A stretch of 61,572 nt of DNA, the filler included, from Candidatus Nezhaarchaeota archaeon WYZ-LMO8 (GTDB taxonomy: Archaea > Thermoproteota > Methanomethylicia > Nezhaarchaeales > WYZ-LMO8), in the NCBI GenBank assembly GCA_004347965.1. It is 16 parts of 16 records of this genome, joined end to end, with 100 filler letters (N's around TTAATTAATTAA, not from the genome) between each part and the next. Parts side by side here need not be neighbours in the genome. Positions count along the whole stretch, not along the records: positions 21,694 to 25,465 come from QNVF01000066.1; 15 more parts are not named here. One strand, given 5' to 3'. The position numbers were made by a program, and so were the translations under genes. Position 1 is the first letter of the stretch, and every line of letters begins with the position of its first letter. The notes beneath the pieces were generated by a model. That model was not told the origin of the DNA and searched no databases. It saw only the letters and a list, made by a program, of their open reading frames with translations. Shown piece after piece: positions 4,744 through 38,491 of the stretch.

Positions 4744-4843
4744 NNNNNNNNNNNNNNNNNNNNNNNNNNNNNNNNNNNNNNNNNNNNTTAATTAATTAAN
4801 NNNNNNNNNNNNNNNNNNNNNNNNNNNNNNNNNNNNNNNNNNN
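4744..4843. other. Artificial contig linker (N-run/TTAATTAATTAA/N-run); first of 15
   Basis: Same 100-nt linker also starts at 9380, 13722, 17684, 21594, 25466, 29291, 33105, 36905, 40608, 44240, 47804, 51367, 54907 and 58334; it has stops in all six frames. Confidence 0.98.
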
Positions 4844-5167
4844 CATCACTTCTACCCAATACTTCGAGGCATCTCTTAGCACGACGCTTTGCTGAATCCT
4901 CTCTTCGAGCTCTCTAGGGGTTAGTGGTATTGCCTCTATGAATGGGGTTATGCCGGCCTTCCACTGCAACCTGTTTATCAAGTCCAGTCTCTCGGTGAAC
5001 GACATTCCTTCGAAGTTCCTTGACACGACTACTAGATCTATGTCGCTCGTCTTAATCCAAGAACCCTTAACGTAGCTCCCAAACAAGTACGCTCTCTCAA
5101 CAGCCACCCCCTCTTTCGAGAGCTCTTCTAGGAGCCTCTTAACAGCTTCAACTATGTTTCCAGGCAT
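4844..5167 (-). CDS. Minimal nucleotidyltransferase (MNT), HEPN-MNT pair
   Basis: YLFGSYVKG...SDIDLVVVS polymerase-beta motif; overlaps the HEPN gene; runs to the contig end. Confidence 0.88.
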
Positions 5168-5552
5168 GCTCTTCAACAGCTTTCACCACGCTACAAGCAA
5201 GGTTGTACGCCCTTTCAGCCTCCACCCTGTCAACGGCTTCGCTTGGAAGCCCATTAGCTGCATCAGGGTATCTCGTTATCGTGTAGTACTTGTTCAATAT
5301 GTATAGCTGCTCCTCGAGCTCTTGTGGAAGCGTAAAGCCCACTTCCTTCAGGAGCCTGTAAAGCTCGGTCACTGTGTGTATGTGTGGTGGCTCCTCCCTA
5401 CGAACTACGAAGAACATGGCCTTCAAGGCCTTCTCGACTGCTTGCTGAGAGAAGAAAGCAGCTCTAAACCACCTACCCCTCTGAATAGCGTCACCCGCAT
5501 CAACAAGGTCTTCGTGAGCAGCTTCAATCCAAAGCCTAACCTCTCTTCGCAT
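5148..5552 (-). CDS. HEPN domain protein
   Basis: AAFFSQQAVEKALKA, HIHTV and YTITRYPD motifs. Confidence 0.9.
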   Translation of the reverse strand: MRREVRLWIEAAHEDLVDAGDAIQRGRWFRAAFFSQQAVEKALKAMFFVVRREEPPHIHTVTELYRLLKEVGFTLPQELEEQLYILNKYYTITRYPDAANGLPSEAVDRVEAERAYNLACSVVKAVEEHAWKHS

Positions 5553-5871
5553 CGTCCTCCACTCTAAATGAAACCTCAACCATTATAAAGCCTACCATTA
5601 TCGAGGACCTCAATAATCACCTACACCAATTCCAGGACATCTTCTCGAACCTTAATTATAGAAGAACGAGTTGGTGTAGTCAATGCTAGCAAACTTCTCC
5701 ACGTCTATTATGCTTTTCAATTCTCTTATAACAAGGCTCTGAGCATTACCTTATGTTTCTCTCTATTCTTTCAGAGTTTTCTGATTACGGTGACATTACA
5801 GTTGCGTTTAATCTGCGCTCGCTCTACATGAAATTCCCGAAGCATCATTGACGTGGGGTTCTCATAAAGAT

Positions 5872-6731: not shown

Positions 6732-7163
6732 TCAGTCTAGTATCCTGGCCTCTCTTAGCTCCCTCTCTATCAAGTTCACGTACCTTCTTACAGCTGAGAG
6801 GACTTCGGTAGCGTAGTCCCTGCTAAAGGCTTTCGATGCAGGTATCCCTTCCCTCTCGTAGCCGTAGAGGGCTGGACCTCTTATCGATGCTAGCTGAGAG
6901 ACAAGCTTAGCTAAGTCTTCGACTTCGCTTCTCAAGTTCTCTGGTAGTGCATCTCCATGATCTATGAGGACGTCGCTGACGTCGTGACTTCGAGGATACT
7001 CTATTCCAAGGGCCCTCAGTAGAGCCTTAACAGCCATTTCAAGCGCCTCCTGGCTCCTCCTAATGGAGGTTGCGTTGTCCCCTTCTACTAGAGCCATTTC
7101 AGCTTCCCTTAGGAAGCGCTTCGCTCTCATCATGTAGTCTCTCGCCATCTCTATGTTTATCAC
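6732..7163 (-). CDS. HEPN domain protein
   Basis: SQEALEMAVKALL...YPRSHDV; 4-nt overlap with the upstream MNT. Confidence 0.88.
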   Translation of the reverse strand: MINIEMARDYMMRAKRFLREAEMALVEGDNATSIRRSQEALEMAVKALLRALGIEYPRSHDVSDVLIDHGDALPENLRSEVEDLAKLVSQLASIRGPALYGYEREGIPASKAFSRDYATEVLSAVRRYVNLIERELREARILD

Positions 7164-7672
7164 ACTTTGATCACCTCACCCAACCTTGCTCCTGGCTTTA
7201 AGATCCAGTACCAGCCATGCTTGCTCTTCACCCTAATCGCTTTAAGTTCTCTAAGCCTCTCCTTGAGTCTCTCGAGCTCTTGAGCTAGGAAGCCGCCTTC
7301 ATCGATCAACGGAACGCCATCAATCACCAGGTCTAAGAGTATTGGAGGATGCCTTTGGACCTCCTCCGGCGTTAGCAGGACGTCGGATATCGTCGTCGGA
7401 AGACCCTTCTTCCTCAACGTCCTCCTCAAGTCCCAACTCCTCTTCCTAAGAAGCTCCTTTAGGCTCGAAGAGAGCTTAAGCCTCTTGCCCACATCCTCTT
7501 CAAGCCCTTTAACGACGACCAATAAGTCCACGTCGCTCTCCTCAGAGGCTTCGCTTCGCGCTACGCTGCCAAAGACGTATACTGAGACCAAATCGTCCTT
7601 AAAGAATTCCCTAAGTATTTCGAGGTAGAGATCTAGATACCTTTTAAGGTCTTCATTGAGTATCGAGGTCAT
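7160..7672 (-). CDS. Nucleotidyltransferase (MNT) domain protein
   Basis: YVFGSVARSEA..SDVDLLVV; C-terminal WYWILKP typical of archaeal MNTs. Confidence 0.88.
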   Translation of the reverse strand: MTSILNEDLKRYLDLYLEILREFFKDDLVSVYVFGSVARSEASEESDVDLLVVVKGLEEDVGKRLKLSSSLKELLRKRSWDLRRTLRKKGLPTTISDVLLTPEEVQRHPPILLDLVIDGVPLIDEGGFLAQELERLKERLRELKAIRVKSKHGWYWILKPGARLGEVIKV

Positions 7673-7803
7673 TAAGCCCTTCCAATAAATGGAGGCATAG
7701 AGTTGAAATAAGTATTACTCCTCGAACTTTTCGTGATATAGTGGTTAAAGGCATGGGTCATTAAGGACGTGCACAATGGAATAGTACGACGCCACCTCTA
7801 CCC

Positions 7804-8738: not shown

Positions 8739-9479
8739 TTAGAGCCACCGAGTTTTTAAGTCAAGTAGACTCATATAAGGTTTACCTAAAATTGGTCTAC
8801 CACATCTTGGACATGAGGGATCTCACAGAGGGATTGAGAATAAGGCTTTTGCACTGCTTTCTTCAACGATGATCGCTAAGTGGTTACCATGTTAGCTTGA
8901 GGGTTAACTTAAAACCATGTCTTCGTGAGGTCCTAGTTAAGCTCTCTTACCTAAACTCTCTTTAGAGCGCCGTTTAGACCGATGGTTGAGGTGGAGGTTA
9001 CTTGGGCTGAAGTTAATTGTAGAGACCTAGCAAGAGAGTCTTTGTAGCAGTAGATGGCCTTAGGGCTCGCTGTTCGAGAGGCTCAAGGGATAAGGGGATG
9101 ATCGAGAAGATTGGTGAGAGAGCAATTAGAGTCGTAAAGGGATGAGGGATGAAGAGAAGGAAGGGAGGCGATCTTAAGGATATGCTTGAAGCTGTTGGAG
9201 AATTAAAGATTGTTCCTGACTTCCCACACTTTGTGATGCTCTTTCTAAATAAGGGGTTGCTGGTCATAATGGATGAGAGGCTCTCCACGTAAGCTGGAGG
9301 ATGAGTATCTAGCTTCAAGGAGCTTGTAAATGGCTGAATTCTACGAAGCGTAGTTAAGAGAGCTGAGGTTTGTATAGGGNNNNNNNNNNNNNNNNNNNNN
9401 NNNNNNNNNNNNNNNNNNNNNNNTTAATTAATTAANNNNNNNNNNNNNNNNNNNNNNNNNNNNNNNNNNNNNNNNNNNN

Positions 9480-13721: not shown

Positions 13722-13821
13722 NNNNNNNNNNNNNNNNNNNNNNNNNNNNNNNNNNNNNNNNNNNNTTAATTAATTAANNNNNNNNNNNNNNNNNNNNNNN
13801 NNNNNNNNNNNNNNNNNNNNN

Positions 13822-17631: not shown

Positions 17632-17783
17632 CTACTTCATGGCTGATTTAATCATTGCCTTAAAGTCTTCCAGCGCACTAATANNNNNNNNNNNNNNNNN
17701 NNNNNNNNNNNNNNNNNNNNNNNNNNNTTAATTAATTAANNNNNNNNNNNNNNNNNNNNNNNNNNNNNNNNNNNNNNNNNNNN

Positions 17784-21593: not shown

Positions 21594-21694
21594 NNNNNNN
21601 NNNNNNNNNNNNNNNNNNNNNNNNNNNNNNNNNNNNNTTAATTAATTAANNNNNNNNNNNNNNNNNNNNNNNNNNNNNNNNNNNNNNNNNNNNA

Positions 21695-22738
21695 ACTAAG
21701 CACGATTATGGCATCATCGAAAGGTGCGTTGACGAGTACGAGAGAAGCATTAAGTCGAAGTTCTCATCTAGGCGCCACGTATTCTTCACCTTCTTTAGCG
21801 ACAAACCCCTACTGGATGTCGACTTCGCTGTGTATAGCATTACGACACATGTAGCCAGTTCCTACGAGGTCTTAGGAAGGCTTTGCAGGCTGATAAGTAA
21901 GGAGTATGGTTACTTGGCCGAGAGACTGGGAAGAGACAAGGTAGTTTTCCCGGTGTCTGGGGTTGAAGAACTACCTGAAAAAATGAGGTTCAACGTCGCT
22001 GGATTGGACTTGGAGCTTACCCTTCACGGCATCAAGCCTTTAAACTTCTCTAGCGCTTATGAAGCGAATTGCATTAAGAGACTTTTACATAGAGCGATAA
22101 AGATAAAGTTGAAATCCAAAGGGTTCATAGTGAAGGGGCTTCAGGCATATTGGAGCAACCCCGTAGTTGAAAGCGATAAAATCGAGGTTAGGAGGGGGTT
22201 CGAGTTCAACGTCATTGTATTTAGTGATGGGGTCGTGGCGCTGGCTCTATCTCCTAAGAGCGAAGTTTCATCAAAGTTGACCCTTTGGGAGGAGAGTGGT
22301 AAGAGCTACGAAAGTCTGCTGAAGATGTCTCGAGAGCTACATGGTAGAGCAGCCAAGAGACTCTACGATGGCGCCATCATAAGGATATTGAGAGTTGAGC
22401 CGATTAGAGTGCATGAAATTGTTAGCGGAGCCAGCGTTCTAAGCATCTATGGGACTAGGGGCATCTTAAGTGGACAGATTTCAGTTGAAGAGCCAGTAGT
22501 CGTGGGGGACCTAAAGGGAGAGGAAGTCAGAGAAGCTCCTTCTATGCTAAAACTCATCTACACCTTGAAGGACCTCAAGAGAATGAAAGTTACCAGTGAA
22601 GTTGTAAAGTTCTTGCATTCGCCACCCCAATTGTGGCTAAAATCAGCTAAGGACTTCCTCAAATCTATAGGCCACATAGAGCTAGGAAGAGAGACCATAG
22701 GCTTCATTGATGAGCCGCCAGAGGTGGAGCTTCTATGA
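21695..22738 (+). CDS. Putative Argonaute N-lobe (N-L1-PAZ-like-L2) partner protein, 5' truncated
   Basis: Frame is open to the contig start, 45 codons beyond the called GTG; IEVRRGFEFNV..FSDGVVALALSP resembles the Ago L1 region; ATGA overlap with the MID-PIWI gene. Confidence 0.65.
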   Translation, partial: TKHDYGIIERCVDEYERSIKSKFSSRRHVFFTFFSDKPLLDVDFAVYSITTHVASSYEVLGRLCRLISKEYGYLAERLGRDKVVFPVSGVEELPEKMRFNVAGLDLELTLHGIKPLNFSSAYEANCIKRLLHRAIKIKLKSKGFIVKGLQAYWSNPVVESDKIEVRRGFEFNVIVFSDGVVALALSPKSEVSSKLTLWEESGKSYESLLKMSRELHGRAAKRLYDGAIIRILRVEPIRVHEIVSGASVLSIYGTRGILSGQISVEEPVVVGDLKGEEVREAPSMLKLIYTLKDLKRMKVTSEVVKFLHSPPQLWLKSAKDFLKSIGHIELGRETIGFIDEPPEVELL

Positions 22739-23931
22739 GAAAGGGAGGGTACCTTAAAAGGCCCGTGCTTAAATTTAGGGATGGTACGGCCTTAACCCCG
22801 ATTGAGGGCTTTAAGCTGAATTTTAAGCCCTATAGAGGGGCTAAGTCAATATCTTGCTACGTAATATGTAAGGGTAACGTACTACATGCCGCCAAAGAAA
22901 TGATCAACAACTTGATCTATGGAGTCAAAGGTTATGAGGGGTTAGAAGCATGGTTCGATTGTAGCCTGAACGTCCACTCAATAGTCAAGGTCGATGCCAA
23001 TGATGAGTACGTAAAGGTAGCTAATGAAGTTTCTGAAGACCATGACATCGTAGTAGCCTTCATTCCCGACGAGATGGCGGTAGAATACGAGGAAGACCCT
23101 TACATGCCCTTAAAGAGGATCTTAGCGGCTAAGGGGTTGCCCAGTCAAATGATTGAGGAGTCGACGTGTAGGCATTTAAGAGATAACAGTTACGTACTAT
23201 TTAACGTTGCTTTGAGCCTATACTCCAAGACTGGTGGCATTCCTTGGACATTGTCAGAGCCTTTGTACTTCGACTGCGTAATAGGCCTCGATTCTATGAA
23301 CAAGGGGGTTGCTGCTACAGTGGCATATGCCACGCCCTTATCATTCAACTGGTTTATTGAGAGTGGAGGGCGTGAGGCGTTGACTGAGGCAGTGATCTCG
23401 TGCTTGAAGGAGGCTAAAACGTATAAGCCGATTAGGAGGATCGCCTTTCATAAGGATGGACCGTTGCACGAGTCGGAAGTGGAGGCTTTAAAGGCTGCAC
23501 TTAATAGGGCCGAAGAAATAGGGTTAGTACATGACCCCCTATGGTGTGCGTTTGAGGTGAAATCTCGATTCACACCTAGAATATTGGGAACTTCGGCTCT
23601 GAGGTTCTACAATCCCGAAAAGGGGGTTTACGTACAATTAGATAAGTTTAAGGCGATCGTAGCAACGACAGGCTTTCCTGAGAGACCTTTAAGTCCAGCT
23701 CAAAGTCCTGTAAGACCTATAATGGTCGAAGCCGTTGACGGTTCGTGGTGGGATTTTGACTTTGAGAGGGCTTTGACGGATGTTTATTGGCTCTCAGAGC
23801 TACATTGGGCTTCGGGATTCACGTCTACGAGACTTCCAATAACCACCCTCTATGCTAAGAGGATATGCAGTTTTTGGAGAGCTGGAGTTGAGCCTTCGAA
23901 GCAGCTGTATGGTAAGCTGTGGTTCTTATGA
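22735..23931 (+). CDS. ago: Prokaryotic Argonaute, MID-PIWI only (short/split pAgo)
   Basis: Y123xxxK127, PSQ138, K165TGGIPW (MID pocket); IGLD186, FHKD241G, LSELHWAS, RLPITTLYAK375 (PIWI); C-terminal LWFL. Confidence 0.93.
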   Translation: MRKGGYLKRPVLKFRDGTALTPIEGFKLNFKPYRGAKSISCYVICKGNVLHAAKEMINNLIYGVKGYEGLEAWFDCSLNVHSIVKVDANDEYVKVANEVSEDHDIVVAFIPDEMAVEYEEDPYMPLKRILAAKGLPSQMIEESTCRHLRDNSYVLFNVALSLYSKTGGIPWTLSEPLYFDCVIGLDSMNKGVAATVAYATPLSFNWFIESGGREALTEAVISCLKEAKTYKPIRRIAFHKDGPLHESEVEALKAALNRAEEIGLVHDPLWCAFEVKSRFTPRILGTSALRFYNPEKGVYVQLDKFKAIVATTGFPERPLSPAQSPVRPIMVEAVDGSWWDFDFERALTDVYWLSELHWASGFTSTRLPITTLYAKRICSFWRAGVEPSKQLYGKLWFL

Positions 23932-25465
23932 AGTGGGTCTATGTCACATGCCTTGGCGAGACACCAGAGGCCGTGTATGGTCCACTTTGGGCACTCGTTG
24001 AGAGGGGTATAAAGCCGTCGAAGATCCATGTACTTTACACTGAAGGGGTCAAGTGGCTTTTGGACAAGGTCAAGAAGCAGATGGCTATAGTCGCCGAGAC
24101 GAGCGACGACGTCGTTGAAGCAACTGAAGTGGATGAGACCGACATCGAAGATAATGCTAGGACTGTGAGGGAAATTGTGGAGAGGTACAAGGCTGAAGGG
24201 TTTAAGGTATCGGTTGATGTGACCCCAGGTAGAAAGCCAATGTCAATAGCAACGTTTCAAGGAGCTATAGACGGTCAAGCGGACCTGGTAACGTACCTCC
24301 ACTTGATGATGAAGGATTTTGAGAGAAAGCCCTATCCACTGATACCAAGAAGCGTAGCGAAGCTTGTCTTGCTCAAGGGAGTGGGATCGTGGGTTTCTCC
24401 AAAGCCACCATTAGTAGAAAATCATGAGTACGTGGAGATAGACCAGATGGAGATATACCCATTCATAAACCTACTTTGTGAGGTCATCGATCGAAACACC
24501 ATAGCTATCGAGATCCCCTACTTAGATCTAAAGCTTTTAACACTAAGGCTCGAGCATCCGAATCCTAAGGTAGAGTACGTAGTTGACGAGAAGACCTTCA
24601 ACGAGAACTTGAAGAACAAGGGTCTCTTGAGCGCCGAGGCCTTCCTACCATTTGGTAATGAGAGGAAGCACATATTCCTGTTATTCAGGGATGCCCTCAT
24701 AGCTTCTGGGGTCGTGGACATTGGGCATAGAGCCTTGATCGATGAAATCAAGAGAGAGGTAGAAGAAGGTGCATTAAGAAGGGGATTTGCGGCTGTGGCC
24801 GTAGACACGAATGCTTTATACATGAGGGTCGTAACTAATTACGTGCTAAGCTTCGTGGAGGCTAGTAGGCTTAAAGTGTTGGTCTCGAACATCGTTGTAA
24901 GGGAAGCTTTAGCTCCCCACACTTTAAAAGAGATGGTTAAGGAGAAGGAGTGGGTCGAAGAGAGCGATAAGATCAAGTCTTTAGCGTTAAAGGTCGGGAC
25001 TGAAGCCCTGCAATTACCAGTTAAAGCGGAGCCTCTAAGGTCAAGGTTATCAAGATTAGCCGCTATTGAGTTAAAAGAGCTCCAAGAAAGGACCAACGTA
25101 ATGATCGTTAGCTCTGTAAGCGGTAGAGGAGACCTAGCTTTAATTGAAAGTTATAAGCAAAGCCCCGATAACCCCATATTCATAACCGGTGACGTGTCTG
25201 CTGCTAATGTAGCCGAAACTGTGAAGTTGAGGACTTACTTAATATCCTATGACGTAAGTGTAAGCAGAGAGGCTCTTAAAATCACTTACACAAACTTTCC
25301 AAGACTCATATTCAACTTAGCAACACTCTTAACGATGATCTCAATAAGGGTACCGAAGACGCGAATAGAGGTCCACGTATTAGGAGCGTGGAGGGATATG
25401 ATAACCTCATGGAGTAAACCAACGATCTTAGTTAGGGCGCCAAATCCAATACACGAAAAGGCGAG
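23928..25465 (+). CDS. CARF-PIN fusion protein (3' truncated)
   Basis: N-terminal CARF (VTCLGETPEAV; VDVTPGRKPMS); C-terminal PIN (VAVDTNAL, VVRE, GDLALI, FITGD); ATGA overlap with ago. Confidence 0.8.
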
Positions 25466-25635
25466 NNNNNNNNNNNNNNNNNNNNNNNNNNNNNNNNNNN
25501 NNNNNNNNNTTAATTAATTAANNNNNNNNNNNNNNNNNNNNNNNNNNNNNNNNNNNNNNNNNNNNATAGAAAGACAAAAAAGGAAATTTGGCGAAAACTA
25601 ATTTTGTTCCAATTTAATAGCTTGGAGGCTAAAAG

Positions 25636-37909: not shown

Positions 37910-38089
37910 CACCCCTAAACCCCTCGTAACAATGCATGAGTTGAGACAACATCTAATCATATCCACTACCCTCAAACACTTGCAGGTGTAGACGACCTTG
38001 TAAAGGGCTTAGTGTAGCGCTAGAGATATTACGAGAAGCGGTATACACATAGCTAATGGTCTTAGCTTATAGCAAGTAGGTGCTCAACC

Positions 38090-38491
38090 ATGTCGATGCA
38101 TAAGCTAGAGGTAGAGGTTTTAAAGAAGAGATCTTCGATGTTTCTGGAGCTGTCAAAGCATGCTCTAAGTCGAGACTTCTACGACCTAGCATGCTTCCTT
38201 GCCGAACAATCTTTACAACTCTTCTTAAAGTCGCTATTACTGGAGCTGATTGGCGATTACCCTAGAACCCATAGCGTAAGGCAATTAATGAGTGAGCTAA
38301 GCAGAGTCCTTAAGTCGTGTGAGCTAGATGAGCTTGTGGCTGCGAGCAGAGTCAGGCTACTAGCTCTCGAAGATGCTTACTTGATGTCAAGGTACTACGT
38401 GAGAGAATACGAGAAGGAGGATGCTGAGGACATGATTAAGCTCGTAGAGGAGCTGCTATCCAAGATCAAGAAGATCCTGGGTGCTGACTAA
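38090..38491 (+). CDS. HEPN domain protein
   Basis: ACFLAEQSLQL, YPRTHS and AYLMSRY motifs. Confidence 0.88.
   Translation: MSMHKLEVEVLKKRSSMFLELSKHALSRDFYDLACFLAEQSLQLFLKSLLLELIGDYPRTHSVRQLMSELSRVLKSCELDELVAASRVRLLALEDAYLMSRYYVREYEKEDAEDMIKLVEELLSKIKKILGAD

Follow-up and report, generated by a model that had tools for sequence, protein, structure and literature searches.

A predicted two-subunit, long-A-like Argonaute with lysine at the fourth catalytic position in a CRISPR-cas neighborhood of a Nezhaarchaeota archaeon

The window analyzed here is a 61,572-nt stretch of DNA from Candidatus Nezhaarchaeota archaeon WYZ-LMO8, and our subject is an Argonaute gene of the MID-PIWI type within it, which lies between a gene for an Argonaute N-terminal lobe (N-lobe) and a gene for a CARF-PIN protein. 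Fifteen joints, each composed of 44 N, TTAATTAATTAA and a further 44 N, divide the window into 16 pieces of descending length, from 4.6 down to 3.4 kb (joint positions include 4744-4843, 9380-9479, 13722-13821, 17684-17783, 21594-21693 and 25466-25565; there are nine others). The window is a concatenation of short contigs from a fragmented assembly, therefore gene neighborhoods that cross a joint are not real, and the true physical context of the MID-PIWI gene is 21694-25465 only. The DNA to the left of the joint at 21594..21693 comes from a different contig and provides no physical context, and the DNA to the right of the joint at 25466..25565 comes from yet another contig.

The three genes of this piece overlap and are read from the same strand. 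The N-lobe gene (21695..22738, +) is represented by its 3' part, 347 of 418 codons, with the frame open to the edge of the piece and the first 71 codons lost at the joint; its stop codon overlaps the start of the MID-PIWI gene as ATGA. The MID-PIWI gene (22735..23931, +) is complete from ATG to TGA, encodes 398 residues, and was identified by its open reading frame (ORF) together with Pfam, PADLOC and phmmer matches. Its own stop codon overlaps the ATG of the CARF-PIN gene in a second ATGA. The CARF-PIN gene (23928..25465, +; PADLOC CARF_m1--CARF_PIN, E 1.8e-41) retains 512 of 525 codons and is cut by the next joint, and the full 525-residue sequence was taken from P0237, which differs at 2 residues. 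No CRISPR-like repeats were found within the window itself, and a scan for promoters and terminators, which was of a bacterial type not suited to archaea, returned matches at the level of shuffled sequence.

The 398-residue protein is an Argonaute by several independent measures. The Pfam Piwi domain (PF02171) reaches 43.2 bits, well over its cut-off of 28.9 (E 3.9e-11), the PADLOC prokaryotic Argonaute (pAgo) model PDLC02436 matches with E 2.3e-62, and phmmer against the PDB returns CpAgo and CbAgo as the best matches by sequence (E ~1e-20), therefore the resemblance is not due to chance; NCBIfam gave no family above its cut-off for either Argonaute half. The AlphaFold2 (AF2) model (predicted local distance difference test, pLDDT, 91.4; predicted template modeling score, pTM, 0.90) aligns in VIA-align with many Argonautes across residues 1-398 (Z 33-37.5), including CpAgo residues 341..751 (Z 37.5, root-mean-square deviation (rmsd) 2.6, 370 aligned), CbAgo (Z 36.9), AfAgo (Z 36.5) and TtAgo residues 310..685 (Z 34.8). 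A Piwi domain above threshold, a MID-PIWI fold and a YKQK pocket together place the protein in the Argonaute/PIWI superfamily.

The pocket is formed by Y123 (codon at 23101), K127 (23113), Q138 (23146) and K165 (23227), which span 23101..23229 (+). These four residues and the terminal WFL are invariant in 25/25 family sequences, and in the profile alignment the four fall on the Y, K, Q and K of AfAgo, in agreement with the original prediction of a long-type pocket. The residues which that prediction had named, these four along with D186 (IGLD), E214 (GGRE), D241 (HKDG), K375 (LYAK) and an LWFL C-terminus, are all found at their places in the translated ORF. YK-type pockets are described as a feature of long pAgos (PMC6299218), and the conserved YKQK residues support binding of a 5'-phosphorylated guide, as far as sequence can indicate. 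The pocket is uninformative on catalysis because dead relatives in the sample carry YKQK too.

The upstream gene encodes what the MID-PIWI protein lacks. On the 666-position PADLOC pAgo model PDLC02428 the N-lobe ORF covers positions 32-285 (E 2.1e-17) and the MID-PIWI ORF positions 293-665. A complete N-lobe ORF of 418 residues is present at L003:4748-6004, on a metagenome contig with 0 mismatches over 2789 nt to the window piece. In the AF2 model of this protein (pLDDT 86.4), residues ~100-418 align with the N-terminal lobe of CbAgo (Z 20.1, 297 aligned), and the model also matches KmAgo (Z 19.3, rmsd 3.3) and residues 8..313 of TtAgo 3dlb (Z 18.1, 281 aligned). This coverage would leave room for a PAZ domain; Pfam detected no PAZ in the partner, and Pfam and NCBIfam detected no effector domain there. 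Residue 1 of the MID-PIWI model falls at approximately residue 338 in CbAgo and 310 in TtAgo, and since the model aligns over its whole length from CpAgo 341 and TtAgo 310 onwards, the break lies within L2. With the consecutive coverage of one pAgo model, the N-lobe Z scores of 18-20 and a clade of ~400-residue relatives, the idea that the gene belongs to a split long-type Argonaute is borne out.

N-lobe residues 1-95 form an extra domain covered by none of the structural matches listed. This domain (L003:4748-5035) has a b-b-a-a-b-b-a order, is conserved in 9/9 aligned partners, and has D19, G28, Y76, G77, R81 and E87 as invariant residues; the best Protein Atlas score for residues 1-98 was 0.87 (Argonaute N/L1 clusters), below the level at which a match is more than a lead.

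The division into two proteins extends throughout the family. Homologues of the N-lobe are separate proteins of 418-422 residues in 5/5 database homologues, and the partner gene was found in 6 of the 10 loci that bear a family MID-PIWI gene. It adjoins the MID-PIWI gene in L002 and L003, is separated from it by two cas1 genes in L006, where it lies ~2 kb upstream, and in L001, L005 and L009 is found ~3.6 kb away on the opposite strand; no partner was found in L004, L007, L008 or L010, where the flanks are short. In L001 (11794-13040, -) the N-lobe gene consists of two ORFs (194 and 154 residues) as against 416 residues in the near-identical L005 and L009, so that it may be broken or may contain an assembly error.

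Database searches returned about 27 close relatives of the MID-PIWI protein, those with a named source coming from Thermoprotei, Thermofilum, Baldrarchaeia and Odinarchaeota metagenome-assembled genomes (MAGs), with complete members of 390-415 residues. In an exhaustive profile search the complete family representatives were all 382-415 residues long; P0060, the complete member with the lowest profile score, reached 356 bits, and the nearest long pAgo then scored 189 bits. The metagenome scan covered 80 of 323 relatives. None of 32 pattern matches in viral contigs was a relative, and the locus tags of the Odinarchaeota members had no match in one supplementary file of the Asgard Argonaute paper.

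A FastTree phylogeny of 124 sequences recovers the family as monophyletic (32/32 tips, support 0.98). In an IQ-TREE analysis of 84 sequences (LG+G4) it is sister to P0158 (785 residues) and P0151 (444 residues), both D..D..H (ultrafast bootstrap, UFBoot, 94), and together they join a large clade in which each of the three aligned tetrad positions is Asp (UFBoot 83). In these trees the family groups with tetrad-bearing long pAgos. Because the deeper nodes are weak and the trees were built without named long-A or long-B reference sequences, we call the family "long-A-like", which is a description of sequence grouping and not proof of long-A membership. Within the family, FastTree gives the subclade of the window a support of only 0.29; IQ-TREE gives UFBoot 95 both to the node that joins the window's group to the core group and to the inner node P0004+(P0003,(P0007,P0013)), and prints no value at the node by which the window's protein and P0004 are united. 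Two long-branched proteins of ~420 residues, P0107 and P0133, carry A, H and S at tetrad positions and nest inside the family in IQ-TREE (UFBoot 78-100); they are probably fully inactivated members.

The catalytic positions were assigned from alignments and from the AF2 model. D186 (23290..23292, +), the first catalytic Asp at the end of strand b1, aligns with Ala541 of the deposited CbAgo 6qzk ("IGLAVGT") and with an Asp in CpAgo ("VGLDVGT"), and D241 (23455..23457, +), the second catalytic Asp at the end of strand b4, aligns with "HRDGF" of CpAgo 9jh7, which reads "HRAGF" in 9jh8 and 6qzk. We take the Ala-for-Asp changes in the deposited sequences to be deliberate catalytic-dead mutations. 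K375 (23857..23859, +) occupies the fourth tetrad position by alignment to the Asp of "GYADKIC". The candidate glutamate finger E214 (23374..23376, +) is placed by the alignment of relatives, in which the site reads RE, RE and VE among the closest and "VE" in most of the family, and it is no more than 1-2 positions away from CbAgo E577, where the aligned loop is gapped. In the AF2 model E214 is at the b3/a1 junction, which matches the described place of the glutamate finger between b-strand 3 and a-helix 1 (PMC5435312).

The original prediction had doubted activity on the grounds that the stretch between D186 and E214 looked shortened. The stretch is indeed shorter, with 28 residues as against 36 in CbAgo, but the model gives no support to a defect, for the core b1-b2-b3-a1-b4 is complete (strands 181-188, 191-198 and 203-210, helix 212-228, strand 235-241) with block pLDDT values of 87-93.

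Across a 25-sequence family alignment, five rows of which (P0016-P0020) are near-duplicates, the first tetrad position is D in 18, E in 5, S in 1 and N in 1, the third is D in 15 and E in 10, and the fourth is H in 15, D in 4, S in 3 and N, G and K in 1 each, so that the ancestral family tetrad, as reconstructed from these counts, is D-E-D-H. Both Asp residues are present in 24 of 37 family members, the fourth residue then being H in 17, D in 5 and K in 2, and most of the family therefore looks catalytically competent. Lys at the fourth position is limited to the lineage of the window: P0002 (199/272 positions identical; D, E, D, K), the fragment P0064 (88/162 positions, 54% identity) and a fragment in L010 (85% identity across the last 54 residues). 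P0005 has D, E and D at the tetrad acids. Since the Lys is common to relatives down to 54% identity it is not recent, and the suggestion of a recently inactivated enzyme is not supported. Outside the family, proteins that keep both Asp residues (n=85) have D in 67, E in 14, H in 4 and K in 0 at the fourth position; where an Asp has been lost (n=50), K is commonest (13), followed by R (8), and the rest are mixed.

Downstream of the Argonaute pair, the PIN part of the CARF-PIN protein has D293, D402 and D422 invariant. The CARF-PIN gene directly follows MID-PIWI in the window and in L010, the two loci of the Lys lineage with downstream DNA, and no description of a pAgo-CARF-PIN pairing was found in the literature searched. 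The identical protein to MID-PIWI (P0001) has a Candidatus Nezhaarchaeales MAG as its NCBI source name, whereas P0237 (2 differences over 512 residues to the window's CARF-PIN) is named from a Thermosphaera MAG, which suggests either a disagreement in binning or a recent transfer.

The MID-PIWI locus belongs to a CRISPR-cas neighborhood. Within the DNA examined, at least one cas or CARF gene is present in 10/10 loci; since L001, L005 and L009 are arranged alike and L003 represents DNA of the window itself, the number of independent arrangements is about 7. L003 extends the window's piece with Cas6, HerA, NurA, CARF-winged helix-turn-helix (wHTH) and Cas2 genes ahead of the three-gene operon. 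The order is MID-PIWI, Cas4, CARF (APE2256), Cas1-like, Cas1 and N-lobe in L001, L005 and L009; N-lobe, MID-PIWI, wHTH, Cas1 and Cas1-like in L002; array, N-lobe, Cas1, Cas1-like, MID-PIWI, Cas6, an unassigned ORF, HerA and a repeat-associated mysterious protein (RAMP) in L006; and MID-PIWI, Cas6, CARF, PIN, Cas4 and array in L007, where CARF and PIN are separate ORFs. The shorter loci have Cas6 and MID-PIWI (L008), CARF and MID-PIWI (L004), and MID-PIWI and CARF-PIN (L010). Cas4 is present in L001, L005, L007 and L009, and no Cas4 was seen in L003 or in the contig that carries the MID-PIWI gene of the window. CRISPR arrays were detected in 3 of the 6 loci scanned (L001, L006 and L007). The association with cas genes may be functional or may merely reflect a shared defense island.

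Further features of these loci were recorded. The arrays lie at L001:4892-6024 (15 repeats), L006:6-513 (7) and L007:6299-6660 (5), with a spacing of ~76-80 nt, and the repeat end motif GAATTGAGAG is common to those of L001 (reverse strand), L006 and L007. Every cas1-bearing locus has two different cas1-like genes side by side, one with a strong match (E 1e-46 to 1e-51) and one weak (L001:9732-11645, L005:3247-5160, L009:1889-3769, L002:5452-7196 and L006:2058-4024); such a doubled Cas1 is unusual. HerA-like ATPase genes are near the Argonaute genes at L003:1008-3669 and L006:7515-9188, and in L003 the HerA gene is followed by an overlapping gene for a NurA-domain protein. The second-ranked PADLOC match for HerA, PDLC01055 (E 2.9e-10), is labeled "Type III coevolved".

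Taken together, we are highly confident that the MID-PIWI ORF is the C-terminal subunit of a two-polypeptide, long-A-like Argonaute whose upstream gene supplies the N-terminal lobe. The upstream gene, translationally coupled by ATGA, would contribute both the extra ~95-residue domain and the remaining N-terminal lobe (residues ~100-418), and by homology the two proteins are expected to form a heterodimer that matches a long pAgo made as one chain. The invariant residues of the pocket (Y123, K127, Q138, K165) would hold the 5'-phosphate of a short guide, with the C-terminal carboxylate closing the pocket, and the guide 3' end would run to the predicted PAZ of the partner. Thermophilic archaeal long-A pAgos use a DNA guide against a DNA target, and a guess by analogy would give the present complex the same preference. 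The family ancestor would have been a D-E-D-H slicer, with Lys replacing the fourth residue in the lineage of the window and D186, E214 and D241 kept. Lys375, a cation unable to coordinate Mg2+, would occupy the metal-A site and thereby abolish slicing or greatly weaken it. The complex might then act mainly as a guide-dependent binder and leave destruction of nucleic acid to co-encoded nucleases, for which the candidates are CARF-PIN directly downstream and Cas4, PIN and HerA/NurA in related loci. Given the identity of the protein, slicing is probably impaired or lost in the Lys lineage, and working slicing there has somewhat less than an even chance. For the whole combination of a split long-A-like Argonaute with slicing impaired by Lys, the balance tips just in favor.

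A number of points weigh against this combined interpretation, and most of them lend themselves to a different account, in which the same split architecture houses a working D-E-D-K slicer. There Lys375 would position or activate the attacking water or replace one metal, and the heterodimer would be a stand-alone guide-directed endonuclease like the single-chain thermophilic long-A pAgos. The Lys lineage retains D186 as well as E214 and D241, and the acids have drifted in the sister lineages with S or N (P0003 D/E/N, P0007 D/E/S, P0009 S/E/S, P0013 E/E/S), a difference that fits continued use of the metal site as judged from the alignment. D/E/D with Lys resembles PD-(D/E)xK chemistry, and by that analogy one-metal catalysis may be at work. 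The modeled partner appears to keep a full-length N-terminal lobe and aligns along the entire lobe of long pAgos, a region that is often smaller in inactive pAgos (PMC10954474), and with 24/37 members retaining both Asp residues most of the family looks intact. One large survey counts K as a canonical fourth residue (D, H or K; PMC6299218). In human AGO1, which has Arg at the fourth position and is without slicer activity, R805H alone did not restore slicing (PMC8874510), therefore the basic residue does not by itself account for the inactivity of that protein. Formation of the heterodimer is itself predicted from homology, and the deep nodes of the trees that place the family are weak (UFBoot 53-65; FastTree 0.62-0.65). 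Opposed to a working slicer are the fourth-position counts outside the family, with K in 0/85 proteins that have both Asp and in 13/50 dead ones, and the inactivity of human AGO1 with its Arg (PMC8874510). The experimentally grounded fourth residues are given as H, D or N (PMC5435312) or as H/D (PMC12477606), and no characterized D-E-D-K Argonaute was found in a literature search judged by titles. We regard a working D-E-D-K slicer as a tentative alternative, which falls clearly short of an even chance.

The coupled CARF-PIN gene raises another explanation, namely that the Argonaute of the Lys lineage is an effector-coupled sensor like short and long-B pAgos, in which target binding would switch on CARF-PIN directly or via a signal. 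The position of an ATGA-coupled CARF-PIN gene after MID-PIWI in both the window and L010 speaks for such a system, the acidic residues of the PIN domain are invariant, L007 has separate CARF and PIN ORFs, and P0239 (CARF-PIN, 52% identity) and P0050 (N-lobe, 62%) may share a contig, to judge from the equal length of the longest contig given for each, 4652 nt. Split long-B pAgos are likewise reported with a conserved downstream effector gene (PMC10954474). CARF-PIN is, on the other side, already known among the ancillary proteins of CRISPR systems (PADLOC CARF_PIN models; PMC4012209), and other lineages of the family have different neighbors. The locus is full of cas genes, so that the co-location of CARF-PIN with the pAgo may reflect only a shared defense island. 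What CARF domains normally respond to is cyclic oligoadenylate produced by Cas10 rather than an Argonaute. The sensor explanation is improbable in our estimate. The possibility that a single long pAgo gene, in a metagenome bin that is itself fragmented, was broken in two by a frameshift or misassembly was also considered, given that the window is a chain of short contigs and the two ORFs match successive stretches of a single pAgo model. It was rejected and its probability is negligible: the same junction is present on the independent metagenome contig, complete family representatives are all ~400 residues with ~420-residue partners existing separately, and in L001, L005, L006 and L009 kilobases separate the two genes or they occupy opposite strands.

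The favored interpretation, a split long-A-like Argonaute with impaired slicing, has its closest architectural parallel in fAfAgo, the split long-B Argonaute of Archaeoglobus fulgidus formed by AfAgo and AfAgo-N, where an archaeal MID-PIWI protein of ~400-430 residues with a YKQK pocket is accompanied by an N-terminal lobe on a separate upstream gene, with the break in L2 (PMC10954474). The MID-PIWI model aligns with the fAfAgo structure 8ok9 with Z 35.6 over 380 residues. Separate N-lobe and MID-PIWI proteins are found in both, but a dead PIWI with a reduced or absent PAZ is not found here, as 24/37 members keep both Asp residues, mostly with His, and the N-lobe is full length. AfAgo is described as long-B with a dead PIWI and AfAgo-N as N-L1-L2 with no PAZ (PMC10954474), whereas most of the present family keep D-E-D-H and the modeled partner spans the whole TtAgo N-terminal lobe with apparent room for PAZ. 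The present partner differs further in its extra ~95-residue N-terminal domain, the two genes are not always adjacent, and the family groups with tetrad-bearing long pAgos. The protein also departs from the single-polypeptide long-A plan (N, L1, PAZ, L2, MID, PIWI), with two ORFs here and ~400 residues throughout the family. Assignment to the short pAgos (SPARTA, SPARSA, SPARDA), which have an APAZ-effector partner, an HK/RK-type MID and no tetrad, was rejected, as the partner here has no effector domain by Pfam or NCBIfam, the MID is of the YK type and the acidic triad is present, and the PADLOC class I models match with E 1e-9 to 1e-17 as compared to 2e-62 for the pAgo model PDLC02436.

CbAgo and CpAgo (6qzk, 9jh7) are the best matches in both sequence and structure, with profile E values of 6e-41 and 6e-38, MID-PIWI Z scores of 36.9-37.5 at 25-27% identity, an N-lobe Z of about 20, and a shared YKQK pocket and hydrophobic C-terminal xFL motif. 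They differ in being bacterial, mesophilic, single-polypeptide proteins with Asp as the fourth residue and a D-to-E spacing of 36 instead of 28. PfAgo and MjAgo (1u04, 5g5t) are archaeal and thermophilic and have His as the fourth residue, as does most of the present family; their tetrad is presumably D-E-D-H. They are single-chain and distant by sequence (profile E 3.4e-9 and 1.3e-9). The "YAH" context of the present family resembles that of eukaryotic Agos. MpAgo-type pAgos in CRISPR-cas loci are similarly long-A-like and lie among cas1/cas2 genes, but are described with a MID-OH pocket for 5'-hydroxyl guides (PMC6299218, PMC5435312), whereas the present family is split and archaeal with an invariant YKQK 5'-phosphate pocket and shares with the MpAgo type the location among cas genes. 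Human AGO1 resembles the Lys lineage in its D-E-D with a basic fourth residue (Arg805), stably kept and non-slicing, and differs as a eukaryotic single-chain protein with Arg rather than Lys and further determinants of inactivity (PMC8874510). A cyanobacterial long-A pAgo has been reported with ACE1, a co-encoded Cas4-family nuclease (PMC12094033); Cas4 in the present loci is accompanied instead by two copies of cas1, by cas2, cas6 and CARF genes and by CRISPR arrays, and may be an ordinary adaptation Cas4. No split pAgo that is long-A-like and bears a PAZ was met with in the literature searched, where the phrase "split pAgo" occurred only in the AfAgo study.

The remaining pieces of the window contain archaeal housekeeping genes (for RNA polymerase, primase, PCNA and ribosomal proteins) that are truncated where the pieces end. 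Small HEPN-domain proteins are encoded at 5151-5582, 6735-7714 and 38066-38488, on other pieces of the same bin, and one HEPN-domain protein adjoins a nucleotidyltransferase in a HEPN-MNT-type pair.

Split Argonautes have been documented for the inactive long-B clade (AfAgo) and for short clades, and the history proposed for them is loss of catalysis, shrinkage of PAZ, splitting and recruitment of an effector (PMC10954474). The present family is split with a full-length N-terminal lobe and is mostly D-E-D-H, therefore splitting needs no prior inactivation. What appears to be new here, with the PAZ assignment resting on the model, is a split Argonaute in a predicted PAZ-bearing, mostly D-E-D-H, CRISPR-embedded archaeal family. 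A natural two-part thermostable slicer would be a potential scaffold for conditional (split) nucleic-acid tools, and the window's protein offers a natural H-to-K variant for probing the role of the fourth tetrad residue. A broader proposition, which we consider unlikely as it stands, is that the whole family represents a two-subunit Argonaute which, in thermophilic archaea, is embedded in CRISPR loci and works in connection with the CRISPR machinery, with the Lys lineage a caught intermediate. If so, nucleic acids made by Cas6, Cas4 or Cas1 might serve as guides, or cleavage products might be fed to Cas1-Cas2-Cas4 as prespacers, and the Lys lineage with its coupled CARF-PIN would be an intermediate on the way from self-sufficient slicer to effector-coupled sensor, as proposed for how the long-B and the short pAgos arose. 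The recurrence of cas1 (two copies), cas2, cas4, cas6, CARF genes and arrays around this family means that a connection of Argonaute with CRISPR immunity can be tested directly.

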